A stretch of 63,696 bases of DNA, counting the filler, from Reclinomonas americana ATCC 50394 (taxonomy: Eukaryota): the NCBI GenBank assembly GCA_048213135.1. It is 4 parts of one record of this genome, joined end to end, with 100 filler letters (N's around TTAATTAATTAA, not from the genome) between each part and the next. Parts side by side here need not be neighbours in the genome. Positions count along the whole stretch, not along the records: positions 1 to 19,998 come from PS015013.1; positions 20,099 to 37,231 come from PS015013.1; positions 37,332 to 52,007 come from PS015013.1; positions 52,108 to 63,696 come from PS015013.1. The stretch is one strand, 5' to 3'. A program made the position numbers and the translations under genes. Below the pieces are notes generated by a model. It had not been told where the DNA came from. It made no database searches and was given only the letters and a program-made list of their open reading frames with translations. Below are positions 3,480 through 63,696 of this stretch, piece by piece; positions within the stretch are counted from its first letter, which is position 1; each line of letters begins with the position of its first letter.

Positions 3480-4663
3480 ATGCCTTCTACTTCAACTCGC
3501 ATGGCGCGGGAGACAAGGTGCGCTGCCTTGCTTTCTTGCAGTGTGCATTGTGCTGACAGTGGTGTGTGTCGCGCAGATATGAGGCCAAGCGCATGAGCTG
3601 CGGTCGATGGACGCTGATCCTCTCAATTCCGATCATCACTTCATTGCTGGGAGTTGCGCTCTCACGTACACACACACACAGAGACAGGCAACGAGACAGA
3701 GTGCACTGATGCTCACTCTGTGTGCATTGCATCAGTTGGTGTTGGTGTTGGCGACCGCCGGCACGCAAAGTGTGGCCGCACTTGTCATTGTCTGTCTGTC
3801 GTGGACGCCGGCGTATATCATTCTCTTCTTTGCACTTCCGTTGCGCATTAGAGCATGCTCTTCTTCGTTGTCACCCTTTTGCTCATTGGCGATGTATCGC
3901 ATCATCAAAGTCGCTATTACTCGCTAAGTCGAACACGCTTCCGCTGTCACGGACTGTGGTGCTGCGGCTGCTCGTTCCCTGTGGCGACCATTGACGAAGC
4001 CGTGCGAGGTACACCCTCCACACACAGCTTGTCTTGGAGATACATATAATGATCCGGTGCGCATTGCAGGCGATCCGAGCGATACGATGGTGTTTTGCGG
4101 AATCCGCCTGGCCTCGGCGCAGGAGAATGCCGTCATTCTCAAGCGCAAGGAGCCGACGCAGGCGATGCCAGGTGCGTGTGGTTTTCGATCTGTGCTCACA
4201 CGGAGGTATTAATACGTTTGCGTGTGGTGATCTGATGCAGCGCATCTTCTGGCCCACGATCCCAGCTCGTCGGCTGAGCCCTGCTGCGCGGACCACTGCT
4301 GCAAGTACACATGCTGCTGCTGCTACCGTTGCGTCAAATGTCGTACCGCTGTCTTCCAATCTGCTGACACAAGGCCGGTATTCTGCAGCCTGCAATGTCG
4401 TGGTGACTCCCGAGGATCGCGACAAGTGCATCATCGACATCAACAAGCAGTTGCGCACCTCATCTCACTCCCGTTGCCTTGTGTGTGAGCCTCTTGCTGA
4501 ATGCATGCGTACTAGGATCATGGCGCTGCGAGCTGGCGGCTTTGATCCGGAAACCGGCCTCACCAGCGACGAGCCACTGGCGATGCAAGCTGCACGCGAG
4601 CGCGAGAGGCAGCAACTGATCGATCAGGGCAGAGGAGGGCGTGGAGGATTCGGGAGACTTTGA
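3480..4663 (+). CDS. Hypothetical membrane protein with two N-terminal hydrophobic segments and a possible bacterial-PH-like C-terminal domain
   Basis: ATG at 3480 or 3501. Spliced reading WTLILSIPIITSLLG-LVLVLATAGTQSVAALVI-SMLFFVVTLLLIG...NVVVTPEDRDKCIIDINKQIMAL, ending at TGA 4663. About 7 GT-AG introns, some junctions tentative. Confidence 0.65.
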
Positions 4664-4742
4664 TACATACAGTGAAAGAACAGGCAAGGTGATGAGTTGT
4701 GCGAAATGGCGGGAATCAAAGGAACATTGTGCGATCGTAAAG

Positions 4743-4745
<3 letters not shown>

Positions 4746-4784
<39 letters not shown>
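4746..4784. repeat. (GA)n microsatellite immediately upstream of the next gene
   Basis: Pure GA dinucleotide run. Confidence 0.95.
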
Positions 4785-4790
<6 letters not shown>

Positions 4791-4807
4791 CAACCTTCCT
4801 CCTCACG

Positions 4808-7563
4808 ATGTCGTCTGCAGCCAGACATTGGCGGCAACTTGCTGTGTGTCTCTTGTGTGTGGCACTGCTGGTGACTGCAGTGGCCAATCACGATGACAAT
4901 GAGGACCACGAGGGTGGTGCTCAGCAGCAGCAGCAGAAGGAGGATGCGCCCAAGGGTATCAACACATGGTGAGAGGGAGAGAGGGAGCAGAGAGGAGAAG
5001 GGAGAGAGGAGAGGGTGGAAGGGGAAGAATGTGACAAACTGTGCGAGAGAGAGACAGGCAGGCACGCACACACACACACAGAGAGAGAGAGAGGAGAGAA
5101 GAAGGAGAGAGAGAGAGAGGAGAGCACGAGGAAGGGAAGAGAGAAGGCACAGAAGAATACAGTGACAGATTGCGAGATAGGAGAAGAGTGAGCGCAAGAG
5201 ACAGGCACAGAGAGAGAGGGAGGGAAGGAGGGAGGGAGGCTGAGAAGGAGCGTGTCTCAGAGAGACAGAGAGAGGGAAGGAGAGAAGAGAGATACGTATG
5301 ATTCATGCCTTCTCACTCCTTCATTGCTCAGTGAATCACGCTACCCACTGCTGGCCAAGCAACAATGGGGACGCATCGCTGGTCAGGACGGGTGGATGGG
5401 CGACGGGACGACGGGAGGCGATCCGCTGACCGATGCGCGTCTGGGGCGCGTCTTTAGTGTGCTGGAAGACCCGGTGGGCTCGGGCGACTACTACTGGTTT
5501 GAGGTGAGACTGTGCTCTTGTCTCTCTACTCGACAATGCTGCTGTTGTCTATAACTTGCTGTTCGTCGCGCAGGAGAACAAGAACGGGAGGATCGAGTGG
5601 CGCGCGATTCAGAACGGCACGGTGCCGGAGGGTCCCAAGGTGGTCTACTGCAGCGGACCGGCAATGCCTGTGCGAGTTGCGTGCACGTGCGCTCACGTAT
5701 CTCGTCTGCCGCTGTTCGGCTAAGAGCTCGTGTGCTGGCAGATGCGTGGTGGATCACTGGTGCAGCCGCGCGTGGCACTTGTCGCACCGCACGGCTCGCC
5801 GTACTTGATTGTGGCCTCGGTGGTGTCGACCAGTTCCGTACTTGTGTTCACTGTAGATGTGTGAGAGGTGTGAACTGACACCGTCTCGGAGCAGGGCACC
5901 AGGGTCAGTTCAATGTGTGGGGTCGCATCAATCAGGTTGGCGACAGCGACGGTAACACGCATTCGTGTCTGTTCCACAAGTTGCGCGCTGTGCGTCTGCC
6001 ATCCTTCCACCACTTGGTGCTCGTGTTAAATCGCGTTGACGGTGCAGGATCCTGGGTGTCACCGAACATCCACAAATCCGCGGTAAGCCTGCGGTATGAC
6101 ACACGGCACTTGTGCCTTTTTTTGCTTGCTCACTCTCCTCTTATTTGCCGCAGGCCTGCTGTACATTCTGGACATGGACTTGTGGGGGCAAGCGCGTGTG
6201 CGCGAGTTGCACGTCGACATGAATCCAGTGGTGAAGACCATTATTCCCACCAGCGATTGGTCGCCGGGCATGGATTCGCCGTTCCAGTTCACCGGGTGGG
6301 TGGTGGTGGTGTGCCACTCGGGCGTGTACTGTAATCTGACGAACGACGCACACTTGTACTGCCCAGGCCCGATCCCGCCGGCTCGTTCTACTTTGCCGAC
6401 TTCGACAACAACTCGGTGGTGCGCATGAATGCCGACTTTTCGGTGCAGTCGTGGGGCGAGGGCGACGCCGGCTGGAACGACGGTCCAGGTGGGTTGGGAG
6501 AGAGGAGTGTAGGCGTAAGGCTGCATGCTGAAAGTGTGCGTGTGTGGCCACAGGTGATCGTGCACTCTTCAACGGACCATTTGGAGTGGCTCTGCTGGAC
6601 AACGATCACATTGTGGTGTCGGACTCGGTTTGTGCCGTCCGCTTGTGCTTTTGCCTCTCACTCCTCTCATTTTTGTCACTTGCGCGCATGTGCAGAACTC
6701 GCACACTCTCCGTCTGATCAGCATGAAGACGAGTTGCGTTGTTTTGTGAAGGATGTCACTACTTTTTGTCTCCTCGTTCTCACCCCGTCGCTTGCAGACG
6801 AAGTGTGCACTCTGGCAGGTGCGCACGCCATTGCTACCTCCATCCCAAGTGCTCGGTGACTGAATTGTACGCAGGTCGACCCAATGTTCGCGGCTTTGGC
6901 GAGGGCGACGAGTCGCAGCTCCTCAACTTCCCCAAGGTGCCGTTCTCCTTGCTCCTCACCACTTTCTTTCCTCGTTCTCATCCCCACGTGCGGCGCAGGG
7001 TCTCATGTGGAACACGGCCACCAAGACCCTGCTCATTGCCGACAGCGGCTCCTTGTTGCGCCTCTGCTTCCCCATTCCTTTCTCTCCCTCTTCCGCACAA
7101 GTTTTGCTTACTTGTGCACCGCCAGCACCATCCGCACGCTGCACTTCCCGGCTCTCAAGGCCGCTGCCGACAAGGCCGAGCGTGACCGCCTGCAACGCGA
7201 GCACCTGCAAGCCCTGCGTGAGCAGGCGCGTCGAGTCCGCGAGATGCGCGAGCGCCACCTGGCCGAGATGGCGCGCGCCGCCGAGATCGAGATCCAACAG
7301 CGCCAAGACATGGAGAAGAGGCGTGCCGACCTGCTCAAGGCCAACCCCGACATGTCAGTGGACGGACACACCGGCCCGCAGTCGGTGGAGGGCGCCACGG
7401 CAAGCGCCGCACAACCCCCACCGGAAGAACTGGCCTTTGACGCGCGGCAAGAGAATCCCACGCCACCGCCACCTCCTCCGCCTCCACCACCACCAACACA
7501 AGCTTCGCCACCTCCTCCACCANNNNNNNNNNNNNNNNNNNNCCGCCACCACCACCAGCGTGA
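4808..7563 (+). CDS. Secreted/ER NHL-repeat (beta-propeller) protein with C-terminal coiled coil and poly-Pro tail
   Basis: Signal peptide RQLAVCLLCVALLVTAVA. NHL-like blades YFADFDNNSVVRM, ALFNGPFGVALLDNDHIVVSDS-NSHTLRLI and LNFPK-GLMWNTATKTLLIADSG. Coiled coil ERDRLQREHLQALREQARRVRE. Stop position is uncertain because of a 20-N gap at 7523-7542. Confidence 0.75.
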
Positions 7564-7658
7564 TGAACCGCGAATGCACGACAACAAAGGAGATCGTACG
7601 ACTATTGATATGTTCATTGCATCATCTCGTGTCAAGGGGCGTGCGCCCTATGGTGCGA

Positions 7659-7958: not shown

Positions 7959-9095
7959 TTGTTGGTGTTCGAGGGGAATCTGTGTGCGCGATTGTAAGGG
8001 TGAGTGATAAGAGCAGAGGGGGAGAAAGAAAAGAAAGGACGCAACTGAGAAGGAGTTGGTCTGCGCTCGCAGGGAAGAAAGAGAAAGCGAATGTGCGAAA
8101 CAAAAAGATGCGCCCGGTGGCCAGATGCGCGTTCGCATCTTTTTTCTCATTCCCGCGCGCCGATCATCGTAGACGCACACTTCGCTGTACACACTGGAAA
8201 CAGCTTTCATTTACAACAANNNNNNNNNNNNNNNNNNNNNNNNNNNNNNNNNNNNNNNNNNNNNNNNNNNNNNNNNNNNNNNNNNNNNNNNNNNNNNNNN
8301 NNNNNNNNNNNNNNNNNNNNNNNNNNNNNNNNNNNNNNNNNNNNNNNNNNNNNNNNNNNNNNNNNNNNNNNNNNNNNNNNNNNNNNNNNNNNNNNNNNNN
8401 NNNNNNNNNNNNNNNNNNNNNNNNNNNNNNNNNNNNNNNNNNNNNNNNNNNNNNNNNNNNNNNNNNNNNNNNNNNNNNNNNNNNNNNNNNNNNNNNNNNN
8501 NNNNNNNNNNNNNNNNNNNNNNNNNNNNNNNNNNNNNNNNNNNNNNNNNNNNNNNNNNNNNNNNNNNNNNNNNNNNNNNNNNNNNNNNNNNNNNNNNNNN
8601 NNNNNNNNNNNNNNNNNNNNNNNNNNNNNNNNNNNNNNNNNNNNNNNNNNNNNNNNNNNNNNNNNNNNNNNNNNNNNNNNNNNNNNNNNNNNNNNNNNNN
8701 NNNNNNNNNNNNNNNNNNNNNNNNNNNNNNNNNNNNNNNNNNNNNNNNNNNNNNNNNNNNNNNNNNNNNNNNNNNNNNNNNNNNNNNNNNNNNNNNNNNN
8801 NNNNNNNNNNNNNNNNNNNNNNNNNNNNNNNNNNNNNNNNNNNNNNNNNNNNNNNNNNNNNNNNNNNNNNNNNNNNNNNNNNNNNNNNNNNNNNNNNNNN
8901 NNNNNNNNNNNNNNNNNNNNNNNNNNNNNNNNNNNNNNNNNNNNNNNNNNNNNNNNNNNNNNNNNNNNNCAGCGGCGGCGGCGGCGGCAAAGGCAGCGAA
9001 TTACTAATTAATGGCCACAGACACACACATTCCCGACTCTTTCTCTAACAAATTCTGTACGATTCCATCTATCCTCCTCCTTTCCAAGTCGTCGG

Positions 9096-11367: not shown

Positions 11368-14300
11368 ATGACAAACCGGAGGCGGCAGCTTCCACCCGCA
11401 CAACACGCATGTCGTGACATCTTGGCGTTGCTGCTTGTCGTGTGTGGCGTGTGCGCTGCACTCGTCCATGTGACATGTGCACACACCGACGATGATGCAT
11501 TAGTTGGCGACAAGTCCGACGACGCGCTGCCACTTGCCCGTCGTAGTGTGCATAGCCTTGCTGCCTCCTCGGACACCCTCTGTCAAGGTGTGTTGCAGCG
11601 ATTCCCACATGAATCGGCCGCTGTGAAAGAAGGGGGACGCGCAGCATCAATAATGCTTGTTGTGCCAAGTTTTCTGCCTTGCGACTGCTCTCCTCTCTTT
11701 CTCTCTCACACACACGCACTCTGCTCATCTGCATACACGCGACAACCGATGCAGAAGCATCTCTGCGAGTGTAACGTTCATAAGCTTCCTTCACTCTGTT
11801 GCGAGACGATTCTGAGTTTTGTGTGGCGTGCATGCACAGTGCTCGTGGCTCCGCAGGGTGTCACAACAGCACCATGTGGCGACCCGAGTGTGAGCAGCAG
11901 TACACCGTGCGCGCTGAGTGCGACACTGTTGTCGTGCACGCAGCGTGGATACAACTCCGCGTCGCCTGTGTGGGCACTCGAGGTAGTCATGCAAGGCGGA
12001 GTATACGACTTGGCCGCGAGTGGATCTCAGCTGGTTGTTGTCGGTGAGATAAACAGGGAGGAGGGGGGAAGACGAGACAACAGCATGGGAGAGGGGGGAA
12101 GAAGGAGCAGACTTGATGACTTTGATGCCGCGCAGGTCGCAATGTCACCGCTTCGCCAGCTGCTGCCGCCGACACATCCGCTCCAGTCACCGTCACTGCG
12201 TCCACAGTCGCGGCCTTCTCTCTGCAAGAGGTGCCTGCGGTTGTGCTACGTGGAATCGTGTTCAGTGGTTCCACTGCGGCCGCGTTGGCCGTGCAATGGA
12301 CGTCGCCGATTGGCTCATCCGCCGCGCACGTCAGTCTCGTCGACTGCGTGTTCACGGATTCTGTGGCTTCACTGGATGCTTCGGCTGCCGGTGCGGCGCC
12401 GTCGTTGCTCACGGTAACAAACTGCACATTCATGCACCTGCGATGCGCAAGTGCATCGTTGTCGGCGTTGACGGTGAGTGGCCGGTTCGCTGCCATCTCC
12501 ATCAGCGGCTCGCTGTTTCACGACAACGTGAAATCGACCATCGATGCTTCGGGCGCCGCCGTGCTGGCCACTCAACTGCCAGCTGGAGCGGTGGTGACCA
12601 TGGTGGCCTCCAACTTCACCGACAACATGGTCGTTGGTTCATTGTCGACTGCTCTCTCCAAGGGCAGCGCTGGCGGTGGTGCAGTGTTTGTAAGTGGTGG
12701 TGGTGGCATGAATGTGACGACTACGGGGTGCAACTTTGCGACAAACTCGGCGTCCAATCTTGCTGGCAACTTCACGGGCGGTGGCGCCGTGTATCTGGTG
12801 ACGACGACGACGACGAGTGCTACAGCTATTGATATCTCATTCACCGACACGAATAGCACGTGGGTGGAGAACACGGTGACAGAGTGTGGTAACGGAGACT
12901 CACTGGCATCGCCGAACAGTATATCGCCGAACGGTGCGTCGTATGTGGGAGGCGGCGCGATATATGCGTTGAATGTGAACGCAATGTCGCTTGTGGGTTC
13001 GTGGTTCTCGGACAATGTCGTGTCGATGAGTGCGACGGGAGTGAACTGCACGGTGGGTGACCTGTGTACGGGGATAGACAACAATGCGTACGGTGGCACC
13101 AATGCCGGCGGCGGAGCAGTGTGGATGATGGCGCCAGCAGCAGCCAAACACGCACTTTTGCAGGTGACAAGAAGCGAGCTGATTTGTTTGGTGTGTACCA
13201 CTCATATGTAGATACATGCATATGCAGGTACAAGACTCCGACTTTGTCGCCAATAGTGCAGCCGCGAATTGTGTGGGCGGTAGCAACAACAACCTGCAAG
13301 GCGGTCCCATAGTCTCTGGGAACTCTGGTTTCTATTGTGGTGGTGGCGCTGTGTGGCTCAGCAGCATGCTGTCGAGTGGTGAATACGTGACGATCGATGT
13401 AAGTGTGTGGTGTAGTGAGAGGGGTGTGTGCTTCTGTCTTCACGTACATTCACTGAGGATGAGACTTGGATGCAGGTGACCTCCAGCCGCTTCATTGGGA
13501 ATAGTGCGACAGGAAATGCGTCAGGGGGAAGCAACAACAGTGGTGCCGGAGACGCGGTCGCCTCGCAGAGCACCATGATGAGCTTGTCTGGTGGTGGAGC
13601 GATATGGTCGCTTGCCTCTATTGCTGGACAAACTGAATCCGTAAAGAGTGGCCTGCAACAGCGTGTATGTCGACGACTGTTTTCAGTGTTTGCTGTTCCG
13701 ATTGTGGACTGACAGCCGTTGGACGGCAGTTTCGTGGATCGCAGTTCGTGGGCAACTCTGCAGTGGGCAACGGAAGTGGAGGGAGTAATAATGGTGGCTC
13801 GCAAAACTCGAATGTTTACGCAACGGGGGGTGGAGTTATCATGATGTATTTGTTTTCAAGTGCAACTCAGGTGCGCTTTCTTTGGCAATGATGTTGGTGT
13901 TGTTGTGCGTTGACAAGATGCCTCTGGCATGCAGGTTATTGAAAATTGTCTCTTTTTCAACAATACGGCACGTCGAAACGGAAGTGGAGGTTGCGATCTG
14001 TTGTGTGCACTGCTTTAGATTTATGTGGTTGTGTTCTGAGAGATTCGCTTTGCGACCGGTTATCCAGGCTACGGCGCAGACGGAAATGCTGGAAATTCCT
14101 ATCACGGCGGCGGTGCTCTGTGGACGGCGTTTTCGAGTCTTGGCAGTGTATCACAAGTGCGCTCACAGTGCTGCTAGTGTGCTGTTATCTTACAAAAGAA
14201 CTGAATTGCGGATGTATTTCATAGATCGACAACTGTTCGTTTGTGAGCAATGTGGCTGCCGAGAATGGCAGCGGAGGTGCGTTTAATGCCGGTCAACAAT

Positions 14301-17300: not shown

Positions 17301-19998
17301 ATGAGGTGATCTGCGAGTATCGTCATAAGCGGGAGTCACACAATCAGAAGTGCTCTGACCTGCGAGTTTCACAGAAAACATGAGTTGACGATTCCCCTTC
17401 GGCCTCACCTGCATCGTTCCACTGACGACGGCCAGCATTGCGCCACCGCCGTCCACAGAACCCGAACTGTCGGCCCTGCCGACATTGACTCCTCCAGCTG
17501 AATTGCCCACGGCACTGTTACCCACAAAGTGACAGTCGGACATGTTGAGCTGTTCGGAACCCACCAGTCTGTCAAGTGCGAAAGCGAAAACATGCATAGT
17601 GCAGATTGATCATTGCAAACCGCAATGTTGGTGCCCTGCTGCAACCAGAGTGCGCCGCCACCATTTTGGGAGCCGATGGCATTGCCGACCAGACTGGCCG
17701 TGCCGCCGACACCATTCGACGAGGCAGAGTTGCCGGTGAATGTCAAGTTGCGTAGCTCCATTGACCACGATTCAGCTGCTGACATGTCGACAGTACTGAT
17801 CCACAGTGCACCACCGCCGTTGCTGCCACCGGAACTGGTTGCTGAAAACTGGGGGCCTGTGCAGAGGAGGATTGATGCGAAGAAGTGATGCTCGTTGGCA
17901 CGCAGCACTCAGCAACAACTGGCACACAGAGATCGTGAAAAAAAGCACCTGAAACACCTCCACAACCGTTTCCCACCGCCGTGTTGTTCGTGAAGACGGT
18001 GTCCGTNNNNNNNNNNNNNNNNNNNNNNNNNNNNNNNNNNNNNNNNNNNNNNNNNNNNNNNNNNNNNNNNNNNNNNNNNNNNNNNNNNNNNNNNNNNNNN
18101 NNNNNNNNNNNNNNNNNNNNNNNNNNNNNNNNNNNNNNNNNNNNNNNNNNNNNNNNNNNNNNNNNNNNNNNNNNNNNNNNNNNNNNNNNNNNNNNNNNNN
18201 NNNNNNNNNNNNNNNNNNNNNNNNNNNNNNNNNNNNNNNNNNNNNNNNNNNNNNNNNNNNNNNNNNNNNNNNNNNNNNNNNNNNNNNNNNNNNNNNNNNN
18301 NNNNNNNNNNNNNNNNNNNNNNNNNNNNNNNNNNNNNNNNNNNNNNNNNNNNNNNNNNNNNNNNNNNNNNNNNNNNNNNNNNNNNNNNNNNNNNNNNNNN
18401 NNNNNNNNNNNNNNNNNNNNNNNNNNNNNNNNNNNNNNNNNNNNNNNNNNNNNNNNNNNNNNNNNNNNNNNNNNNNNNNNNNNNNNNNNNNNNNNNNNNN
18501 NNNNNNNNNNNNNNNNNNNNNNNNNNNNNNNNNNNNNNNNNNNNNNNNNNNNNNNNNNNNNNNNNNNNNNNNNNNNNNNNNNNNNNNNNNNNNNNNNNNN
18601 NNNNNTCTACGTGGAAGGCGCGGCTTCCGTGCTGCTTGTGGACTGTCTCTTGCAATCGAACAATGCCACCCTCTCGGCCGGTGGCATCTACATGTCACAA
18701 GCGGCCAACGTGACCACACGTCACACCCGGTTTATCGGAAACACTGCCGCCACCGCCGGCGGTCACCTGGCGTCAGTTGGCCTGGGGACCTGGACGGATC
18801 ATAACAGCACGCTGAGCAGCGGCACCAGCGGTCTCGATGGCGGAGCCGTCTATATCCTCGGTCAGTCGATTACGGCATTGTCGAACTCAACGTTTTCCGC
18901 CAACAGTGCCAGGCAAGGAGGCGGTGCAGTGAGCGTTGCAGAATCGGCAGTGATGCAGGCCGAGAATGTGATGTTCAAATCCAACAATGCACAAACGGGG
19001 GGTGCAGTGGAAACAGCCGACTCACCCACCGTGCACTTCGCTGGCACTGAGTTCCGATCCAACATTGCTGTTGACGCTGGTGGCGGTATGTTTGCTGGTG
19101 GCTCTGCCACAGTGGCTTGCATCGAGTGCCGATTTGTGTCCAATCAAGCTATGATGGGTGACGGAGGTGGTGCGAGTGTGGCCAACAGCACGAGCACGTC
19201 GATTGTGGGTTCACAGTTCTTTGACAACGTCTCTGGTAGTCGCGGTGGTGGACTGTCTGTCAACATGACAGCCGCCTCTGCATCGTCCACCCCCGGTACC
19301 GCAGCGGTCGATCCCATGGGAGTGTTGCTGCTCGACGTGGTCTTTGACAACAACGGCGCTGTTGCTGAGTCTGGTGGGAAGCATCTGTTGGGTGAAGGTG
19401 CAGGAGGTGGAGTATTCTGGAACGGCGGCACCGAGCCTCACGCCCTGTCGACGGTGGCAAGCACTGTCAATGCATCGGGAGGCTGGTCGCAGTGGTCGGC
19501 GCAGCGCAGACTGACGATGCTCGGCAACTATGCCACCAATGCACACGCAGCCGACGTGGGTAGTAGTTGCGTAATACTCCAACACCACGCCTTTCTATGG
19601 TTCTTGTGTGTACTTACGTAATGTGTGATCACGATGACACGCGCGCGTGTTGCAGCCATGTACACGGTCGTTGTTGATGAAATCAATGGCGAGGCGTACC
19701 CGTCGCCCAGTGAGCCGAGAAAGATCACTGTCAACGCCACCGACTGCTTCGGCAACTTCATGTCAACACTCGACAACACGCTGATCAGTCTCTCGTGCAG
19801 CAATTCTGGATGCAGTCAAGAAGTTGCGGCCGCGTGTGCGCGTGCGATGAGTTCTTCTGAAGAGTGCTGACACAGCGCGCGACATTTGCAGACATCATCG
19901 CAAACGCAGGCTGCGAGCAATGGAACAGCCGTGTTCCAGCTGATTGTCGTGCAACGAGCAGTAGAACTGTCATCTGCACAGCGCCAGCAGCTCACCAT
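11368..19998 (+). CDS. Large secreted/surface protein with polymorphic-membrane-protein-like GGA(I/L/V) and FxxN repeats (right-handed beta-helix); interrupted by gaps, 3' end missing
   Basis: Signal-like ILALLLVVCGVCAALVHVTCA. Dozens of motifs such as FTDN, FATNSA, GGGAVY, FVGNSAVGNGSGG, FSANSARQGGGAV and FRSNIAVDAGGGM. Many GT-AG introns at repeat-equivalent positions. Confidence 0.8.
16738..18006 (-). CDS. Internal exons of the same GGA/FxxN-repeat gene on a contig placed in the opposite orientation
   Basis: Minus-strand TVFTNNTAVGNGCG, GGSNGGGALWIS, FTGNSASSNGVGG and FVGNSAVGNSAGG; bounded on both sides by N gaps. Confidence 0.75.
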
Positions 19999-21720: not shown

Positions 21721-22610
21721 CATTTCTTCGCTCACAACCGGCTTCCAGCGGCACAGATTGGAGAGCGACCACGCCACGTTGCGCACGAGCCCGATGCTCA
21801 CCGCCGGATTGGCGGAATCACCCGCGTCTTGCGCATCCGGATCGCAATGCAACAGCGTAAACAACTTGACATGCATCGCTCGACCCAGCAGCATATCACG
21901 CAATTCCGCACAGTCGCCCGACACGTTGCCGATGAACCACACCGCCTGCGAGCGACGTGACATGAAAAGACCGCAAGTGGCGCGCGAGGCACACACACAC
22001 ACACAAAGGTTACCTGTTCGCGAACATCAGAGCTCGGCGACAGGAGACACCGTTCGACATCCGGCAGCACCCCCGACGTCATCACCGCCATGGTCTGATC
22101 ATGCGACCCCGATGCCACATTCGACAAGATCCACAGGCACTCAAACTGCACATGCACACGTGAGTCAAAAAACAGTCAGTGGTCATCATCATTCCTCACC
22201 TGCAACTCATGCGACTGCTCCTGCCGCACTCCATTGACTACAGTTTCCAACGCTTCATCGGTATCCAAGAACGCCTGCAACGTGCCATCCTGCGCCGCAC
22301 TCTCTGCACAAACACGTCACATGACCGAAATAACACACACACACTCGCGCGCGCGCACACACACACCAGTAGACACCAAGCGACGAATGCTATGTGCGCC
22401 CGACACCTGCTCCGCCATGGTACCAACGCGGATCATGTTCACACCACGTTGAATCTGTTCTCGCGTGTGTGTGTGTGTGTGAGAGAGACAGTGTGCATCA
22501 TACGCGCACACACAATCAAGCAAGCAAAACGCAACTCGCTGAGCCACATTATGAGGTTCCTCAGCGCCAAACTGCCTGACTGCATTGTTCTCTGCGATCT
22601 TCTCCGCCAT
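21721..22610 (-). CDS. Importin-alpha-like ARM-repeat protein, N-terminal exons
   Basis: ATG 22610. HSIRRLVSTE...ELQFECLWILSNVASGSHDQT, DVREQAVWFIGNVSGDCAELRD and LVRNVAWSLSNLCRWKP are classic importin-alpha ARM1-4 motifs. Confidence 0.85.
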
Positions 22611-43843: not shown

Positions 43844-43856
43844 ACTTACGCCAAGA

Positions 43857-51720: not shown

Positions 51721-54700
51721 ATGGAGCGCTCACCATCTCGATCGCGGGCGCACAAGGACGATGACGAGGAGGAGGAGGAGGAGGATGAGGATGTGCCCAT
51801 GATGGCCTCTGCGGCGATTGAGGCCGCCACTGCGCGCACAGAAAAGGAAGAGGAGGAGGAGAGTCGAGTGCGTGTGAAGAAGGAGCGCGTGGCCAAGAAG
51901 CGGCCGCGCGATGAGGAGGAGCATGGGGGTGGTAGTGGCAGTGGAGGAGGAGGAGGAGGAGGAGAGTCGTCATCATCAGCAGCAGCAGCAGCAGGTGCGG
52001 ATGACGANNNNNNNNNNNNNNNNNNNNNNNNNNNNNNNNNNNNNNNNNNNNTTAATTAATTAANNNNNNNNNNNNNNNNNNNNNNNNNNNNNNNNNNNNN
52101 NNNNNNNCAATGCGTCACCAACAACACCGCCTCCGACACTGTCCACTGTCTCTCCAACGCTCCTGCGTGTGGTGGAGGAGGAACTCAAGTTACGTAATCA
52201 CACATACACACGCGCTTGATTGATTTCACTTCCGCTCGCCCCCTCCTCTCTCTCTCTCCCTCCCTCCCTTCCTCCACTGTCGAGTGATGTGTGTGAGAGA
52301 GAGGGTGCATGCAATGTGATCTCTTGTCTGTTGTTGTTTGTTGCGTGTGTGGCTTCGCATATTCTGTGTTGCCTTTTATGAGGTGGCGGAGAGAAGCGAT
52401 AGCATATGTTGTGTGGTGTGTGTCGCTTCATCTGGACGCGCGGGCGTATAACATCACCCCGCGCAGACATACCCGCTGTTCGGTACTTTGCGTTTGTCTA
52501 CTTTCGCGCGCTCTCTTCCTGCATGCCCTGTCTCTGCTGCTCCCTGCGCGCTGTCATGTGTCACTGCCAATGCACGATCGTGCGGTGTCGGTGCTGGACT
52601 ACAACAAGAGGGGAAAGATATTCGTCCGGTTTCTCCTTTTTTTCCGTCGCCGCATTTGGGCATCGCGGTTTCCTTCTCGCGATAACACTCCGCTCACTTT
52701 GCGCCTTGGCTCCGCGCAGATGCCCGCTCTGCTTCATGTTGTTGGCCGTGAATCCGATTACGTTGCCGTGTCAGCACTCGTTCCATGCGGGCTGCCTGTT
52801 GCGGTCAAGAGTTGCGCGCTCTCCCTTGTGTTCGGATTGGAAACAAGTGTGAGAAGTTAAAACTCTCCCCCCTCCCTCGCAGGATCACAGCAATCGCTGT
52901 CCAACGTGCCGCGCCATCTACCATGTCGGTGGGCCCAGTGACCTGCCTATCAACACCGTGCTGCGCAATATCGCAGAGGCGTTGTTCCCGGAGGCCACGG
53001 CGGAATTGCGGCAGGCGCTGCTGGAGGAGGTGCAGCCGGATGCACAGTCGCTCCCCCTGTTCATGATTGGTGGTTGCTAGTTGCGTNNNNNNNNNNNNNN
53101 NNNNNNNNNNNNNNNNNNNNNNNNNNNNNNNNNNNNNNNNNNNNNNNNNNNNNNNNNNNNNNNNNNNNNNNNNNNNNNNNNNNNNNNNNNNNNNNNNNNN
53201 NNNNNNNNNNNNNNNNNNNNNNNNNNNNNNNNNNNNNNNNNNNNNNNNNNNNNNNNNNNNNNNNNNNNNNNNNNNNNNNNNNNNNNNNNNNNNNNNNNNN
53301 NNNNNNNNNNNNNNNNNNNNNNNNNNNNNNNNNNNNNNNNNNNNNNNNNNNNNNNNNNNNNNNNNNNNNNNNNNNNNNNNNNNNNNNNNNNNNNNNNNNN
53401 NNNNNNNNNNNNNNNNNNNNNNNNNNNNNNNNNNNNNNNNNNNNNNNNNNNNNNNNNNNNNNNNNNNNNNNNNNNNNNNNNNNNNNNNNNNNNNNNNNNN
53501 NNNNNNNNNNNNNNNNNNNNNNNNNNNNNNNNNNNNNNNNNNNNNNNNNNNNNNNNNNNNNNNNNNNNNNNNNNNNNNNNNNNNNNNNNNNNNNNNNNNN
53601 NNNNNNNNNNNNNNNNNNNNNNNNNNNNNNNNNNNNNNNNNNNNNNNNNNNNNNNNNNNNNNNNNNNNNNNNNNNNNNNNNNNNNNNNNNNNNNNNNNNN
53701 NNNNNNNNNNNNNNNNNNNNNNNNNNNNNNNNNNNNNNNNNNNNNNNNNNNNNNNNNNNNNNNNNNNNNNNNNNNNNNNNNNNNNNNNNNNNNNNNNNNN
53801 NNNNNNNNNNNNNNNNNNNNNNNNNNNNNNNNNNNNNNNNNNNNNNNNNNNNNNNNNNNNNNNNNNNNNNNNNNNNNNNNNNNNNNNNNNNNNNNNNNNN
53901 NNNNNNNNNNNNNNNNNNNNNNNNNNNNNNNNNNNNNNNNNNNNNNNNNNNNNNNNNNNNNNNNNNNNNNNNNNNNNNNNNNNNNNNNNNCATGTGGCCT
54001 TCTCGTCGCACGTCCACCGCCATAGATTTCTCACGGAAGGATCGTGCAGCTGTTTTCCGGGCAGCGGGCTTCCGCTGCATGTTTTCGAGCCTCGATATCG
54101 GCTCATGCTTCGCCGGTGCGTATTTGTGTGTGCATGCACTCCCCTTATTCCCCCACTCACTTGCTCTATTCTGCAGGGTGCTACAAGCATCACGTTCATT
54201 CGGCGTCATGGCGCAACTGCAAGATAGCATTGGAACCATGGTTGAGGTTGACGAGTACTTCCAGGTGCATTTCACCGTTGCTGACTGCCGCACTCTTGTG
54301 TTGTCACTCAACCTCCTCGATCAGCTTCCCGACGGCAGGTTATTCATCCGCACGGTTGGCCGTCGTCGCTTCCGAGTACAGAGGTGCGTCTCTCGCGACC
54401 TCCAACAACGCAGTGCATGCACACGTGGCCGCTCACTCCTCATATTGTGTTGTCGTTGCGCAGAGCGTGGGAGGTCGACGGCTACACAGTGGCTGGTGAG
54501 CAATGTGGTGCATGTGCATGCACCCTTGTGTATTCGTTTCGCTGACTCCTCCCTTTGCAGCTGTCGACTGGATCGATGATGTCGCCGACCCGACGCAGCC
54601 TCGCTCAACAACACGCCCCCCGTGCGACTCGTCAGGAGATGCCGGTCCGTCATCGGCTGCTCGTTCGGCCCCTGATTGCGACGACGCACGAATGGACTGC

Positions 54701-55396: not shown

Positions 55397-55772
55397 GCAG
55401 CTCGCTGCGTACTTGGGATCGGTGTGTGTGTGTGTGTTTGTGAGGACGGCGGAGGAGGCAGTGGTGCACGCTCGTCTCGTCCACTCGTTTTCTAGTCGAG
55501 TGTGAGAGGTGGCGGGGATGTGCATGGAGAGGGCTCTTTTCGTCGGCATGCGCGGCGGGTAGTAGTTTGGTGGGGTTTGTTTGCGAGTGGCTAGGGGAGG
55601 GGGTTGTGGTGGTGGCGTTAGTTTGTGTAGCATTGAAATTCTTCTACGACACTGTAACGAGGGAGCATTTCGGTTTGCAACACACACATGAACAATCTCT
55701 ATTGGAGCGAACATCGACCGCTGTGCGGAACACCNNNNNNNNNNNNNNNNNNNNTCGTCTGCGTGTCTACAG

Positions 55773-56668
55773 TGGAAGGCGGTCACCGTGCCGTCGTCTT
55801 CAATCGCTTTGGTGGCGTCAGTGATGAAATCCGCGGCGAAGGAACACACATTGTCATTGTTGCGTCTTTGTCGCTTTGTTCCCCCGTTCGCGTGCTTGGC
55901 GTTGACTGGCTTTGTCTCTCTCGCCGTGTGTGTGCAGCCGTGGTTCCAAGTGCCGACCCTGTTCGACGTGCGCACTCGTCCGCGCATGATCCACTCGTTG
56001 ACTGGCAGTCGCGATCTGCAAATGGTCAACATTACGCTACGTGTGTTGTACAAGCCCGACGTGCAGCGCATCAACACCATTTTCAAGTCCCTCGGCACCG
56101 ACTACGACGAGCGCGTGTTGCCGTCGATCGGCAACGAAGTGCTCAAGTCGGTGGTGGCGCAGTTCACGGTGGCGGAGTTGTTGACGAAGCGACCAGAGGT
56201 CTCGCGAGAGGTCTCACGGCGCTTGGTGGCGCGTGCTGCCGAGTTCCACATTCTCGTTGATGATGTCTCGCTGACGCACGTTGGATTCGGCAAGGATTAC
56301 ATGGCAGCTGTCGAAGCCAAACAAGTTGGTGAGTCGGATCTCGTCGTCGACATTGTGTGTGTCCACAGAGCAACTCACTCGCTCGTGTGTGTGTGCGCCT
56401 GCGCAGCGCAACAGGAGGCGGAACGCGCCAAGTTCTTGGTGCAGCAGGCGGTGCAGGACAAGCAATCTATCATTATTCGCGCAGAGGGCGAGGCTCGTGC
56501 CGCCGCCATGATTGGAGAGGCCATGTCACGCAACCCGTCGTGGTTGGAGCTGAAGCGAATTGAGGCCGCCAAGGATATCGCGTCCACGGTCTCGAACTCG
56601 GCCAATCGCGTTTACCTCAACGCGGACTCGCTCATGCTTAATCTGGTGAACGCTGTCGGCTTTGAGGA
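55773..56668 (+). CDS. PHB2: Prohibitin-2, core exons (contig orientation opposite to the first exons)
   Basis: VEGGHRAVVFNRFGGV, PWFQ, RPRMIHSLTGSRDLQMVNITLRVL, DYDERVLPSIGNEVLKSVVAQF, AVEAKQVAQQEAERA and NRVYLNADSLMLNL. Confidence 0.93.
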
Positions 56669-57240
56669 GTTGCGTTGCGCCGTGTGCCAGTGCAGCGATT
56701 GCAGTCGCTCACGTTTTCCCGNNNNNNNNNNNNNNNNNNNNNNNNNNNNNNNNNNNNNNNNNNNNNNNNNNNNNNNNNNNNNNNNNNNNNNNNNNNNNNN
56801 NNNNNNNNNNNNNNNNNNNNNNNNNNNNNNNNNNNNNNNNNNNNNNNNNNNNNNNNNNNNNNNNNNNNNNNNNNNNNNNNNNNNNNNNNNNNNNNNNNNN
56901 NNNNNNNNNNNNNNNNNNNNNNNNNNNNNNNNNNNNNNNNNNNNNNNNNNNNNNNNNNNNNNNNNNNNNNNNNNNNNNNNNNNNNNNNNNNNNNNNNNNN
57001 NNNNNNNNNNNNNNNNNNNNNNNNNNNNNNNNNNNNNNNNNNNNNNNNNNNNNNNNNNNNNNNNNNNNNNNNNNNNNNNNNNNNNNNNNNNNNNNNNNNN
57101 NNNNNNNNNNNNNNNNNNNNNNNNNNNNNNNNNNNNNNNNNNNNNNNNNNNNNNNNNNNNNNNNNNNNNNNNNNNNNNNNNNGGAGTCGGAATGCAAGGC
57201 AAGCAACGAATGGTGCAGGCACACACACAGACTGACTGAC

Positions 57241-57738: not shown

Positions 57739-60700
57739 ATGGGCGATGCTGTGCTGCTGAATGGGCCACACGGCGACCTCTTTCGGTACTCTCACACACG
57801 GAGAAGACACTCTCTCTTGCACACGCTCACCTCCTTTCAGGTCCACACATGAACTGGAAAAGCAACTGGCCACACTGTGTCGCACGCATCGCGGCTCCTA
57901 TGTCTCCCGCGAGGCCACTGCCATTCGCGAGAGGTGTGTGCCTGTGTGTGTCTCTTTTTGACTCTCTTGCCAGCGCTGATTTGTGTCGCAGCATTCGCGG
58001 GAATTACGAAATGATCATCTGTGAGGACCACGAGTTGGCCTACCAACGCGACTTGGTCGTCAACGTGTGGCGTTTGGTGTATTACAAGCCCATTGAGGAG
58101 TTCCGCCGTCGCTTCAAAGAGGTATCATTTTGCCCGCCTTTTTTCCTCTCTCCTTTTCCTCTTCTTCTCTCTGACACTATCGACAAGGTGACAACGGCGG
58201 ATCAGAAGGGACAGCTCACACTGGAGTTTATGGCGTTTCTCGACGAGGCCAAGGCCTTCTTCATGCTCCTGGTGCAAAAGTTGGAGCTGCAGGCCAAGAG
58301 TTGCGCTGTTCGTTGAGCATTTCAACCGCGTGCGTGTGTGTTCTCATTGTGTGTGTTTTTTGCCGCCAGCGCTGAGCAATCGGGAAAAGCCGCACGTGTA
58401 CTTTGTCATACACAAGTGCTTGGTGTTCCTCGGAGACTTGGAGCGGTACAAGCAGAATTACTCGGCCGAGGTGGAGAAGGACTGGCGTGAGGCCACGCAC
58501 TGTTACCTGCGTGCGCATGCCATGGCTCCGTGCAGTGGTGCGTTTGCAACTGGGTTGGAGCGTGCGTGGCCGGCGACAGTGCTGACGTGTGTGCGTGTGT
58601 GGCGGTGCAGGGAGTCCGCAGAACCAGCTCGCCGTGTTGGCGACCTACCGCAACGACGACTTGGAGGCTATTTATCGCTACTTTCGCGCTCTGATGGTGG
58701 AGAAGCCGTTTCTCAACGCACGAGAGAACCTGCTGACGCTGTTTGAGAAGAACCGCTTGCGCCTGCTCGAGTTGGAAGCGTTGTTGACCCCGAAACGCAA
58801 GGTGGCGTGGTGGCAGTGAAGCACATTTGTTCTTTCTCATTCTCATTCGCTCGCTGTCGCAGGATCGACGCTCCAAGCAGCAGCCGCGTCGAGGCGCCGG
58901 TGCGCCGTCGCTATCGGCTTCGGGTGGATCATCGTCGTCGGCATCATCGTCGCTGCGCGATTCACTGTCCGGATCGTCGTCGGCCACTCCTGGCGGGCCG
59001 TCGTCGACTCCTGGAGGCGACACCCACGCCGGCTCCTCGTCCGCATCGCTCTCGTCGCCGTCGGCCGAGGACTTCCGCTTGTTCATCACACGCTTCATTC
59101 GTTGCCACGGCGTCCTGTTCACCAAGACGAGCGCCGAGACGTTCCACGACGTGGAGCAGCAGGCCATGCGTGCACTGACGGCGTTCATGAAGGCCAACTC
59201 GTTGGAGGGCGACCTGTTCACCATGCTGGTGCTGATGAATGCATTCTCGGTGCACAATCTCGACTATGCTCCCGGTGAGTCGCGGAGTGGAGGAGCGGCT
59301 GTGAACGAACGCACTCATTGTGTTTTTCTGCGCAGAGCACTACACAATGACGGATGTGGATCGGCGCAAGAAGAATGACCTGACCGAGTACGCGTTGGTC
59401 CTGTTCTACGATACGCTGCGCAAGGTGAGTGCGCAGAGCATCCCGTCATCGGTTCGAACGCTGCGCTCACGTGGCAGTGGCGATGCAGGCGTTTGAGAAC
59501 ATCTTCTTTGCCAATGCCACCACATTCCTGGTCGGTGCGATGTTGGGAACTGCCTGGTTGGCGCAACACTTGACCTCGGCTCTGGCCGATTTGCCGCCTC
59601 GGGAGAAGGAGGTTCGTGACACTCGTGGGGTGTTTTTTCCGTTTGTGTGCATGACAAGGGTGTGTTTGTGCGTGATGCAGGCGCGTGCGCGTAAATCGCT
59701 GTGGATGTGCATCGCCAAGGCGCTCTCTGTGTTGCACTCGCGACACCCACACCTGACAGTCTTGGCGGAGGGTGCGCTCTGCTTGTTGCTTCGTCGCAAA
59801 CCGACACACTCACACATGCTTACCATCGCCTCTCACCGCAGAATCCGGCCTCTTTGTTGCCGGTCCTGAGGACTACGATCTGCAAGGCTGCACTCCGTTT
59901 CGCGCCCTCGTCGGCGACGCCGGTGTGTGTGTGTCTCCCCACTGTCTACCTACCTGTCGTTTTGCTGAAACGCATGTGTGTCAAAACGCAGATGTTGCCG
60001 GAGCCAAGGACGGTGAAGACGATGAACGCCTGCAGCAGCGGCGGCGGCGAGTGGTGGCGGTTTCGGATGCCAATGAAGACGAGGAGGACGAATTGGAGAT
60101 GGCGCGCCTGGCGCGACTGTGGAAGTACGCCACAGAGGTGGCCGAGGAGCACCCGGTGAGTGTCTCTCTCTCACACACAATGGCTTCACCTATCCACTCA
60201 CACGCATGCACACGCAGGACTTTGCCGAGGAGGCTGCGGCTCGTGGCGTTCCTCTCGGCCGTGGTCACATTGGCACCGTGTCGGCCGCCATGCCACCCCC
60301 CCAACCGGTCGTGCGCATGGCCAATGGACATGCTGGTCCCTCTGTGGCGGCTGCTCGGCCAGCACCGTCGCCAATGGTGCACGACGCCGACGACAGTGAG
60401 GCCATGATGGTTGATGTCGCGGCTCACCGCCCTGCCGACGCCGGTACGTCACCCACCACTGTGCGCCTGTCAAGTATATTTTCATTCATCTTTGTGGTGT
60501 GCAGACATGAGCTCTCTTCCTGCTGCTGCTGCTGCTGCTGCCGCCGCTGGGGGCGCATCCAGCTTCATGCACGCCGATGATGATGACGATTATCTCCACA
60601 GTCACCAGGCCAGTGCTGCTGCTGGCGCGCCGTCGTCCAGTCTGCGCGCACGCCGTCCGATTGACAGCGACGACGAAGACGAAATGATTGTCTTCGATCC

Positions 60701-61665
60701 GCAAAAGTTCACGGCTCCGCCACGCGCAGTCGCGCCTGCGAGTTCTATTGGAGGTGCGATGTGCTTGGTGTTGCTGTTATCACAGCGTGGGGCTGCGACT
60801 GAACTCTCTTGGCAAACTTCGCAGGCCACCAGCAGGCATTGTTTTCAGCCGAGGACCGCGTGGTGTCGGAGCGCGAGCGCACTTCAGTTGCCGGTGACTT
60901 GTATCGCGGACAAGTCGTTGGCACATCTGCGCTGCCGTCTGTCGCGGTGCCGACCTCCATCCCCTCCATGCCTGCTGCCACCTGGTCATCGTACCAACAG
61001 TTCAATCCGATGGGTGGCATCGGCGGTGCTGGTGGTGGTGGTGGTGGTGGTGCCGGCGGTAGTGGTGTTGGCAGTGGGATGGGTGCCGGTGGCGTGGGTT
61101 CTGGATTCCTCGGAGGCCCCATGTCTGGCTTTGCAAGCGCCATGGGTGGCGCGGGCGGCATGTCTGGCGCCGGTGCCTTTGGTATGGGCGCACCGTCGGC
61201 CGGTGACATGTTCCGTGGTGGATCATCGTCCTTTTTCGGTGGAGCGCAACCGTCGCCTGCCGTTGCGTACGGCAACATGGCGCCGACACACGCTTCCAAC
61301 ACGGATGGGTGCGTTTTTCTGCACAAGCAGAGATCACCGAGATGGTTCTCACAAGTGCACTGCTGTAATGCGCGCAGCGTTGGACCCACTCCCATGTCGT
61401 GGATGTACGACACTGCTCTGCTGCCACCGCGCCCGCCGTCTGCACCGTTGGCTCCAGTTCCCAACTTTTCTGCGTACCCGATGCCGCCGGTGAGAGACGC
61501 AGTGTGCGCTTATGTCAGTGTCGTCCGCCTCCCTCATGCCTGCCGTGTCAGCAGCCGATGGGTGGCATGCCGTTTGGTGCGGCCCCAATGCCCTCTGCGC
61601 CGGGACCGCTGGGCAGTCCGTTTGTGTTCCCGAATCCAACGGGGACTGGCGGTGGTGGTGTCTGA
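57739..61665 (+). CDS. SMG7: SMG7/EST1-family NMD factor (14-3-3-like TPR plus helical domain, low-complexity tail, no PIN domain seen)
   Basis: VWRLVYYKPIEEFR, KCLVFLGDLERYKQ, ATHCYLRAHAMAPCSGSPQNQLAVLA, AIYRYFRAL..KPFLNARENLLTLFEK, FIRCHGVLF and PEDYDLQGCTPF; G/M/P-rich tail to TGA 61665. Confidence 0.8.
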
Positions 61666-63195
61666 GTGCGAAAATTCGCGCGTGAGTGTCTGTGTTCGGA
61701 TGAGTGAGAGAGACGTGCGACCTCAGTGTCGCCTGTGGAGTCTTGCCAATGCGTGCAAGTGATCGCGGCGCCCCGTTCTGTGGCAGCGTGTGCAGATCCT
61801 CCTTTCGTCTTCTCCTTCCACCTCTGCATCCGACCCCCATCTGCGTCAATGACGTGGACGGTGGACGTGCGATGCTTGAGCAACAGAAAACAAGGAAAAA
61901 CTCCCCACTGGTGTGAGATTCGCCAGCTGGGTCACCCGCGGTTGTAAGATATCGTGTGTGGTGCATCATACTATCTATGTGTTGTATCCCTTCTTTCTCT
62001 CTTTTTTTCTCTCTCGTTGTCTTTATCTTCTTCATTCTATATGCCCTTCTATCGTGCTGCCACTGCTCGCTTCCCTGTGAGCGAAGCGCGAGACGTAGTG
62101 TACGCCACTGNNNNNNNNNNNNNNNNNNNNNNNNNNNNNNNNNNNNNNNNNNNNNNNNNNNNNNNNNNNNNNNNNNNNNNNNNNNNNNNNNNNNNNNNNN
62201 NNNNNNNNNNNNNNNNNNNNNNNNNNNNNNNNNNNNNNNNNNNNNNNNNNNNNNNNNNNNNNNNNNNNNNNNNNNNNNNNNNNNNNNNNNNNNNNNNNNN
62301 NNNNNNNNNNNNNNNNNNNNNNNNNNNNNNNNNNNNNNNNNNNNNNNNNNNNNNNNNNNNNNNNNNNNNNNNNNNNNNNNNNNNNNNNNNNNNNNNNNNN
62401 NNNNNNNNNNNNNNNNNNNNNNNNNNNNNNNNNNNNNNNNNNNNNNNNNNNNNNNNNNNNNNNNNNNNNNNNNNNNNNNNNNNNNNNNNNNNNNNNNNNN
62501 NNNNNNNNNNNNNNNNNNNNNNNNNNNNNNNNNNNNNNNNNNNNNNNNNNNNNNNNNNNNNNNNNNNNNNNNNNNNNNNNNNNNNNNNNNNNNNNNNNNN
62601 NNNNNNNNNNNNNNNNNNNNNNNNNNNNNNNNNNNNNNNNNNNNNNNNNNNNNNNNNNNNNNNNNNNNNNNNNNNNNNNNNNNNNNNNNNNNNNNNNNNN
62701 NNNNNNNNNNNNNNNNNNNNNNNNNNNNNNNNNNNNNNNNNNNNNNNNNNNNNNNNNNNNNNNNNNNNNNNNNNNNNNNNNNNNNNNNNNNNNNNNNNNN
62801 NNNNNNNNNNNNNNNNNNNNNNNNNNNNNNNNNNNNNNNNNNNNNNNNNNNNNNNNNNNNNNNNNNNNNNNNNNNNNNNNNNNNNNNNNNNNNNNNNNNN
62901 NNNNNNNNNNNNNNNNNNNNNNNNNNNNNNNNNNNNNNNNNNNNNNNNNNNNNNNNNNNNNNNNNNNNNNNNNNNNNNNNNNNNNNNNNNNNNNNNNNNN
63001 NNNNNNNNNNNNNNNNNNNNNNNNNNNNNNNNNNNNNNNNNNNNNNNNNNNNNNNNNNNNNNNNNNNNNNNNNNNNNNNNNNNNNNNNNNNNNNNNNNNN
63101 NNNNNNNNTCGCCAGCCATGTGTGTTTCACGGTGATTTCATTGCCACGGCCATGTATTCAGTTTTTCGCTCAACAACCACACCGCCTGCCTGTCC

Positions 63196-63696
63196 TCAGT
63201 CAGCAGCCGACGCAGACGCTGCGGCAGCCGCCGCGCCCGGATGCGAGTACAAGGTCACCACAGGCTCCTGGCCTGGCGGCAACATCTTTTGCACAATCGT
63301 CACCTTCTCGCCGAGTGCCAGAGCCATGCCCTGCGTCTTGCAGCGGATGCGGATGAAGCCGGAGATACCGCGACCGAATTCACCGCACTTTTCGATGCTG
63401 ACATTGGCCAGCGAGTCCTCGCCAAAGAAGCTGCGCGCATACAGATTGGCCGACATGAAGCTGCAATCGTCGTCAAAGTCGTCCAGATCCGTCAGACACC
63501 GCATGTTGGTGGACTGGCACAGGTGCTTGATGAACTCCTTCATGTCGCTGCAGCCACACGAGGGAGATTTAGAACAGGGGATTGTGCAGACTAGGACAGA
63601 GGCACGACGCAACGTGAAGAATGTGTGCACGGTGATCTTGTTCTCCCACTCGAACTCGGCCCACATGTTGCGGAACTCGGCGTCGCTGCACAGTCG
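63196..63696 (-). CDS. COPB1: Coatomer subunit beta, C-terminal exons (partial)
   Basis: [53 protein letters not shown] and [20 protein letters not shown]. Confidence 0.95.

Follow-up and report, generated by a model that had tools for sequence, protein, structure and literature searches.

A GTTGCG class of 5′ splice sites in Reclinomonas americana and its possible recognition by U1 in a shifted register

We analysed a 63,696-base stretch of the Reclinomonas americana ATCC 50394 genome (assembly GCA_048213135.1; four parts of record PS015013.1 joined end to end; hereafter, the window) and found, beside ordinary 5′ splice sites (donors) such as G|GTGCGT, where the bar marks the cut, a large second class of donors that read GTTGCG. 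About one predicted intron in five in the window belongs to this class. The bases around the cut show the GTTGCG donor to be the organism's normal motif (G|GUGCGU, in general form G|GUNNGU) moved downstream by one base relative to the cut, so that it reads H|GUUGCGU, and they give a somewhat better than even prospect that U1 small nuclear RNA (snRNA) pairs with it in a shifted register.

The GTTGCG donors and their introns

A preliminary description of the window had listed 33 donors of this kind. All 33 carry the motif on the strand assigned to them (GTTGCG at 30 sites; GTTGAG at 31188 and 42592, both on the minus strand; GTTACG at 52189 on the plus strand), and a recount of the last exon base returns the composition given there, with A in 20, T in six, C in four and G in three. 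The claim that these introns restore the reading frame holds for 29 of the 33, where removal of a GT..AG intron of 57–114 nt joins an open frame; among the remaining four, two meet N gaps, one has no acceptor that could be found, and one apparently lies in a 5′ untranslated region (UTR). The class is less pervasive than the 'nearly every gene' of that account: of the 28 gene models, about 17 contain it. Its standing as a large second donor class is borne out, since some 31 of the roughly 170 introns predicted over 57 kb are credible members.

Introns were predicted with a custom dynamic-programming gene finder, which scores codon log-odds, permits any GT..AG intron of 35–400 nt, handles assembly gaps, and was trained on the window itself. 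Codon usage taken from long open reading frames (ORFs) alone gave noise, and the finder needed self-training together with a model of the branch site, acceptor and intron length. The final model contains 168 introns and includes 22 of the 33 listed sites; its donors are GTTGCG (26), GTGCGT (22), GTGTGT (13, the third commonest), GTGCGC (9), GTGAGT (9), GTACGT (5) and a long tail. Ordinary donors are very degenerate window-wide (G|GTNNGY). Three extra sites in the model were left out of the count as doubtful: 22797 (+), where g|GTGAGC 6 nt downstream is the more likely donor; 52798, which competes with 52811 and would shorten a RING loop; and 3840. GTTGCG also occurs in tandem pairs, at 52798/52811 (+), 13 nt apart, and at 56669/56674 (+), 5 nt apart. 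In the former pair a RING loop of the right length results from the downstream copy; the gene finder had picked the upstream one.

The need for splicing was assessed in 32 introns, comprising the 29 listed introns and those at 33470 (−), 44270 (+) and 22797 (+). In 25 of them read-through would change the frame or run into a stop codon, so splicing is required; read-through is open in the other seven. No other in-frame GT lies within 18 nt of the donor in 19 of the 32, while an in-frame alternative GT with G at intron position 5 (+5G) is found within that distance in five.

The motif is also enriched as a donor when the gene finder is given no preference for it. When self-training was begun from a flat donor model, GTTGCG became the commonest donor hexamer. 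With donor scoring switched off and the branch, acceptor and length model left on, GTTGCG served as the donor of 18 of 167 introns, versus 1.95 expected from its share of all GT hexamers (91/7,790; Poisson P = 4e-12), and the second donor was GTGCGT, with 13 uses. Both strands together hold 91 copies of GTTGCG, whereas base composition predicts about 35 and a Markov-4 estimate gives 71. On gene models, 56 copies lie in sense and 26 in antisense orientation (p = 0.001); without the donor set, which comprises the 33 listed sites together with 33470 (−), 44270 (+) and 22797 (+) and accounts for 33 GTTGCG occurrences, the sense:antisense ratio is 24:26. One-base variants of the motif are mostly strand-symmetrical (for example, GTTGCC, GTTGCT, GTCGCG, GTGGCG, GATGCG and GCTGCG); the asymmetrical ones are GTTGCA (28:13), GTAGCG (1:10) and GGTGCG (55:25), the last of which forms part of the ordinary G|GTGCG donor.

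Comparison of the 32 GTTGCG-type introns with 105 introns bearing +5G shows the former to be ordinary major-spliceosome GT..AG introns of about 69 nt. Specifically, the two sets have similar lengths (69.5 versus 68 nt; p = 0.18) and G+C contents (0.55 versus 0.53), and a CAG acceptor is present in 29/32 versus 95/105. A branch-like word is found in 23/32 versus 91/105, at a median distance of 21 versus 19 nt, and the words common to both classes (CTCAC, CTGAC, CTCAT and others) lie about 20 nt upstream of the acceptor. The longest substring shared by two introns averages 6.49 within the GTTGCG class, 6.34 within the ordinary class and 6.37 between the classes. With no shared sequence beyond the donor and the ordinary branch and acceptor, the GTTGCG introns are therefore neither a repeat family nor minor-spliceosome introns.

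U12-type introns have the donor consensus RTATCCTY and the branch consensus TCCTTRAC near the 3′ end, and introner elements are intron families spread by transposition. The U12-type reading was rejected on the donor sequence and the CTCAC/CTGAC branch words, and the introner or repeat-derived reading on the absence of likeness along the length of the introns. Separate from the GTTGCG class, the window contains one good AT..AC candidate, at 30677–30755 (−), 79 nt in length, which begins ATATCCTTTT and carries CCCTTGAC 11 nt before its terminal AC. The frame is restored by its removal, and the codon score is then 12.0, versus 10.4 for the GT..AG intron that the model places there; if the candidate is real, the organism retains U12-type splicing.

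Junctions, the cut and the displaced donor signal

Five GTTGCG junctions (55859, 63613, 45841, 46542 and 34696) are fixed by homology or repeat spacing in the predicted proteins, and three more (42369, 52811 and 49065) are supported. In the prohibitin-2 gene, four of seven orthologues align without a gap from 55772–55858 on to 55938 (at residues 31|32, 62|63, 62|63 and 72|73), and the remaining three end 1–3 residues before the junction at 55859; the Band_7 profile covers positions 2–29 in the upstream exon and 30–118 in the downstream exon. In the coatomer beta gene, the profile runs from 23 to 45 upstream of 63613 and from 49 to 128 downstream, and three intervening residues fill positions 46–48. 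In the NHL-repeat protein, the repeat that spans 34696 has the spacing of its three sister repeats.

For CEP76, an exhaustive representative search returned 580 relatives, and the spliced model was aligned with 14 near-full-length ones, eight of which are shown per junction. Neither 45841 nor 46542 has an indel in the orthologues shown; at 46542 the orthologues are collinear over YPDD-T-VAVW, and the CEP76_C profile match stops at the donor. Among the 13 junctions of the CEP76 model, ten are collinear, one (44270) lies within a non-conserved stretch, and two are contradicted: the predicted introns 45443–45514 and 45561–45638 (+) would leave gaps of 4 and about 25 residues, respectively, and the latter stretch is probably exon. 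The odd-donor tail of the predicted set thus contains false calls. Among other CEP76 donors, GTACAC, GTATGC, GTTTGT and GTTCGG are collinear with orthologues (for example, at 43921, 44748, 45107 and 46090, +).

The supported junctions rest on domain spacing and structural relatives. Reading through 42369 would require about 21 residues more than RING profiles have, and the downstream exon begins at profile position 15. At 52811, the upstream exon stops at position 30 of the 40-position RING profile, and the final Cys pair is present only once the intron is spliced. The exons flanking 49065 are collinear with the serine palmitoyltransferase structures 6m4n_A and 7yjk_A to within two residues. 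In the EST1/SMG-like gene, profile coordinates across 58300 are non-contiguous (64, then 107). Homologue searches for longer proteins, made with the RNF10-like ORF and with the CEP76 C2 ORF, gave no matches; the junctions of the RING gene at 42369 and 42592 are accordingly placed by frame and RING spacing.

The preliminary description placed the cut at GT, and the prohibitin-2 junction agrees with it, since its Pro codon arises only from a GT..AG cut and Pro is present in all seven orthologues listed. A cut one base later (intron TT..AGN) was considered; it keeps the frame but turns this conserved Pro into Ala. The other four homology-fixed junctions are compatible with either position. Of 32 introns, 25 are followed by an exon whose first base is other than G.

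We then divided the 168 predicted introns into class A, with +5G (n = 105), and class B, with +3T and +6G without +5G (n = 33; GTTGCG 26, GTTTCG 4, GTTGTG 2 and GTTGAG 1). The last exon base (−1) is G in 79/105 class A introns; in class B it is A in 13, C in seven, T in seven and G in six. Class B −1 thus differs from class A −1 (p = 1.9e-9) and is indistinguishable from class A −2 (p = 0.66). On the intron side, class B +7 follows class A +6 (p = 0.64), not class A +7 (p = 1.2e-4). Because −1 behaves as −2 and +7 as +6, the whole signal, exon side included, lies one base downstream of the cut, and U replaces the normal G at the motif's +1. Furthermore, GTTGAG, GTTACG and GTTTCG are one-base displacements of GTGAGT, GTACGT and GTTCGT.

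The association with a non-G last exon base is also found among the listed sites, as the preliminary description had it, with −1G at three of 33 versus 79/105 ordinary donors (p = 8e-12). GTT donors with +5G (GTTTGT, GTTCGT, GTTCGG and others; n = 13) retain −1G in 11. At the listed sites, −1A (20/33) exceeds the frequency of A at ordinary −2 (32/105; p = 0.0035), an excess that fits an added A:U10 pair with U1.

Pairing with U1 and alternative explanations

On the shifted-register reading, which the statistics above suggest, U1 snRNA would pair one position downstream of its canonical register. Specifically, +1G would stand in place of exonic −1G, +3U in place of +2U and +6G in place of +5G, while −1A would pair where −2A normally does; the predicted pairs are +1G with U1 C9, +3U with A7, +6G with C4, +7U with A3, and −1A with U10. 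The cut at GU would still be set by the later U6/U5/Prp8 steps, and the shifted mode would serve roughly one intron in five in this lineage.

Several points weigh against this reading. When duplexes are modelled by nearest neighbours, the U1 5′ end of human type given in PMC4856993 (AUACUUACCUG) reaches −1.8 kcal/mol on GTTGCG-type sites versus −5.8 kcal/mol on class A, and it shows no consistent register, choosing the shifted one at only 2/32 sites and the canonical one at 0/32. A plain shift predicts neither the GCG core, present at 30/33 GTTGCG-class sites versus 34/105 ordinary ones (p = 2e-9), nor the C at the shifted +4 position (30/33 versus 44/105). The window contains no U1, U5, U6 or other snRNA gene by Rfam at both thresholds, and the register is inferred from the statistics of about 30 sites. 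The intron set itself comes from an ad hoc, error-making gene finder (two of 13 CEP76 junctions contradicted), on which the strand calls partly depend; its acceptor scoring favoured CAG and CTNAC, equally in both donor classes, and the codon model of the flat-donor test was itself the product of previous training rounds with donor scoring on.

The strictness of the GCG core is left unexplained by a simple shift, and a changed or second U1, which the preliminary description had also suggested, is therefore to be considered. If positions 5 and 6 of U1 were G and C, this hypothetical U1 would reach −7.1 kcal/mol on class B and place 19/32 sites in the shifted register, as a model rather than a finding. 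It is possible, though on the doubtful side, that the 5′ end of U1 (or of a U1 paralogue) is changed in this organism, for example at positions 5–6 to complement the GC of GUGCGU, and binds donors genome-wide in two registers, so that U1 placed one base beyond the cut would define about one intron in five. Such a U1, if true, would offer a natural system in which U1 recognition is uncoupled on a large scale from the choice of cut site by U6, U5 and Prp8.

Somewhat less likely still is a second U1 snRNA, or another dedicated reader, that would match GUUGCGU by complementarity in the ordinary register and favour A through the base facing −1. The strict GCG core, the excess of −1A over ordinary −2, the very weak pairing of standard U1 and the strong pairing of the hypothetical U1 would all be in accordance with it, and variant U1 genes are known in humans (PMC3561869 and PMC10870369). 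However, −1 matches ordinary −2 and +7 follows ordinary +6, and one reader slipped by one base accounts for both patterns, so that no new component is needed; the same hypothetical U1 puts most of the sites in the shifted register anyway, and the window is without any snRNA gene.

The preliminary description mentioned human sites read in a shifted or bulged register and proposed the shifted one, which the sequence statistics fit rather than a bulge. In the bulged alternative, which we consider distinctly improbable, U1 would keep its ordinary register while a single U, at +2 or +3, bulges out, and the motif would be GUGCGU with a tolerated one-base insertion. The intronic part is indeed the ordinary motif plus one U, with +7 following ordinary +6; the legend of Figure 1C in PMC4856993 documents a +3 (or +2) bulge register at human sites; and duplication of a T after GT is a trivial mutation, neutral for coding. 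A bulge, however, leaves −1 facing U1 C9, so −1G should stay preferred, and this preference is not seen, with −1G at only 3/33 listed or 6/33 class B sites; the GTT donors with +5G do keep it. Moreover, the duplex model picks the bulged register at 2/32 sites with standard U1 and at 5/32 with the hypothetical U1.

That the GTTGCG sites are not true donors (the motif being enriched otherwise, with real junctions at nearby GTs), or that the introns are mobile introner copies, is very improbable: the few in-frame alternatives with +5G, the introns open on read-through and the case of 22797 would favour the former, but five junctions are fixed by homology, most sites lack another in-frame GT nearby and need splicing, the motif is strand-symmetrical outside the donor set, and the introns have no common sequence beyond the donor.

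Intron list, gene content and comparison with known systems

Table 1. GTTGCG-type introns and motifs in the window. Every intron row rests on the motif and on a frame-restoring GT..AG removal; any further basis is given in the last column.
Feature	Position	Strand	Length (nt)	Phase	−1 base	Remarks
GTTGCG intron	3653..3735	+	83	0	A	splicing needed
GTTGCG intron	4450..4515	+	66	2	A	TAG acceptor; read-through open, weaker support
GTTGCG intron	5676..5741	+	66	0	A	in-frame t|GTGCGA 6 nt upstream
GTTGCG intron	6733..6797	+	65	1	A	
GTTGCG intron	7055..7125	+	71	2	T	
GTTGCG intron	13990..14067	+	78	1	G	
GTTGCG intron	19566..19655	+	90	1	A	
GTTGCG intron	19823..19891	+	69	0	A	hand-chosen acceptor
GTTGCG intron	22455..22535	−	81	0	A	hand-chosen acceptor; read-through open; weak
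GTTGCG intron	25724..25794	−	71	1	A	
GTTGCG intron	28719..28782	−	64	2	T	
GTTGCG intron	28862..28930	−	69	1	G	
GTTGCG intron	30529..30604	−	76	2	A	
GTTGAG intron	31127..31188	−	62	2	A	
GTTGCG intron	32986..33051	−	66	1	T	
GTTGCG intron	33405..33470	−	66	2	C	absent from the preliminary description; upstream exon matches p25-alpha profile 3–49
GTTGCG intron in NHL repeat	34636..34696	−	61	0	A	repeat spacing
GTTGCG intron	35791..35865	−	75	1	C	read-through open
GTTGCG intron	36256..36334	+	79	1	A	downstream in-frame GTGTGT alternatives
GTTGCG intron	36609..36677	+	69	0	T	
GTTGCG intron in RING finger	42304..42369	−	66	2	C	frame and RING spacing
GTTGAG intron	42523..42592	−	70	2	A	LAN|FRF junction of the preliminary description
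GTTGCG intron, CEP76	44270..44337	+	68	1	C	absent from the preliminary description; non-conserved stretch
GTTGCG intron, CEP76	45841..45897	+	57	0	T	orthologue alignment
GTTGCG intron, CEP76	46542..46612	+	71	2	C	orthologue alignment
GTTGCG intron, serine palmitoyltransferase-1-like	47581..47694	+	114	1	G	read-through open; N-terminal region non-conserved
GTTGCG intron, serine palmitoyltransferase-1-like	49065..49129	+	65	1	A	PDB alignment
GTTGCG intron in RING finger	52811..52882	+	72	0	A	RING profile
GTTGCG intron, prohibitin-2	55859..55937	+	79	0	T	orthologues and Band_7 profile
GTTGCG intron, EST1/SMG-like	58300..58369	+	70	1	A	
GTTGCG intron, coatomer beta	63548..63613	−	66	2	C	profile coordinates
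GTTGCG motif, possible 5′ UTR donor	8040..8045	−			A	motif only
GTTACG motif, claimed donor	52189..52194	+			A	acceptor looked for, not found
GTTGCGT motif after 75-codon open frame	53080..53086	+			A	candidate intron runs into gap 53087–53990
GTTGCG motif at end of prohibitin-2 homology	56669..56721	+			A	candidate intron runs into gap 56722–57182

The window is eukaryotic in character, gene-dense and rich in short introns, with 58% G+C outside its 22 assembly gaps, which account for 7,030 N. Several genes are interrupted by gaps such as 53087–53990, 56722–57182 and 62111–63108, in which at least two of the GTTGCG introns are lost in part. A Pfam search of 288 stop-to-stop ORFs, each of at least 100 amino acids, placed genes for PIG-X, an NHL-repeat protein, two RING proteins, CEP76, an LSM protein, a class I/II aminotransferase, mitochondrial-type ribosomal protein L17, a Band 7 protein, an EST1/SMG-like protein and coatomer beta. 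The aminotransferase is serine palmitoyltransferase 1-like by its PDB matches, and the Band 7 protein is prohibitin-2 by its homologue matches. The presence of CEP76 suggests that the organism builds centrioles. The closest database relative of the prohibitin-2 exon (55757–56666, +) is 61% identical, and no protein encoded in the window is among the matches; the lineage seems unrepresented in the protein collection.

In addition, the window abounds in microsatellites of the (TG)n and (GA)n types and in long purine-rich tracts (for example, 4743–4790 and 4975–5290), with 309 occurrences of TGTGTG and 207 of GAGAGA versus about 25 expected. A palindromic hairpin at 37539–37605, between short N gaps, matches one microRNA (miRNA) model weakly on both strands (28.9 and 26.9 bits, where the gathering score is 69) and is unlikely to be a miRNA.

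A search of the open-access literature, with subscription papers and supplements outside it, found no description of a lineage-wide shifted-donor class; the matches were only primers, unrelated RNAs, or splicing work in human, yeast and nematode. If a fifth of the introns in this genome are read in the shifted register, it would show that the placement of U1 can be routinely uncoupled from the choice of cut site, and the way in which U6, U5 and Prp8 fix the cut could be studied in hundreds to thousands of natural examples. In practice, such genomes will be mis-annotated by gene finders that rely on one donor matrix.

Among known systems, U12-type introns likewise form a second distinct donor class beside the main one; they differ from the introns described here, whose donor is GTTGCG and whose CTCAC/CTGAC branch lies about 20 nt upstream of the acceptor as in ordinary introns. 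Introner elements likewise comprise many introns with a fixed 5′ end, but the GTTGCG introns have no similarity beyond the donor. The human sites with a +2/+3 bulge (Roca et al. 2012, as cited in later work) share with the GTTGCG sites an intronic consensus with one extra U after GU, whereas the exon side, kept in place by the bulged register, is displaced here.

The closest likeness is to human shifted-register sites, as far as the cited passages describe them. Shifted-register recognition is established in human cells (PMC4856993 and PMC11162779, both citing Roca and Krainer 2009). As in those human sites, the GTTGCG donors have GU at the cut, an extra U after GU, and the equivalents of +5G and +6U at +6 and +7; they have no −1G or +5G in the canonical register, and −1 takes the role of −2. 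The two differ in core sequence, GCG here versus the A-rich core of the human oligonucleotide in Table 2 of PMC4856993. They also differ in frequency: all human non-canonical registers together make up about 1.5% of sites, by the figure in PMC11162779, versus about 31 of some 170 introns here, where the register is a predicted one. A mode of recognition known as a rarity in humans thus looks routine in this window.

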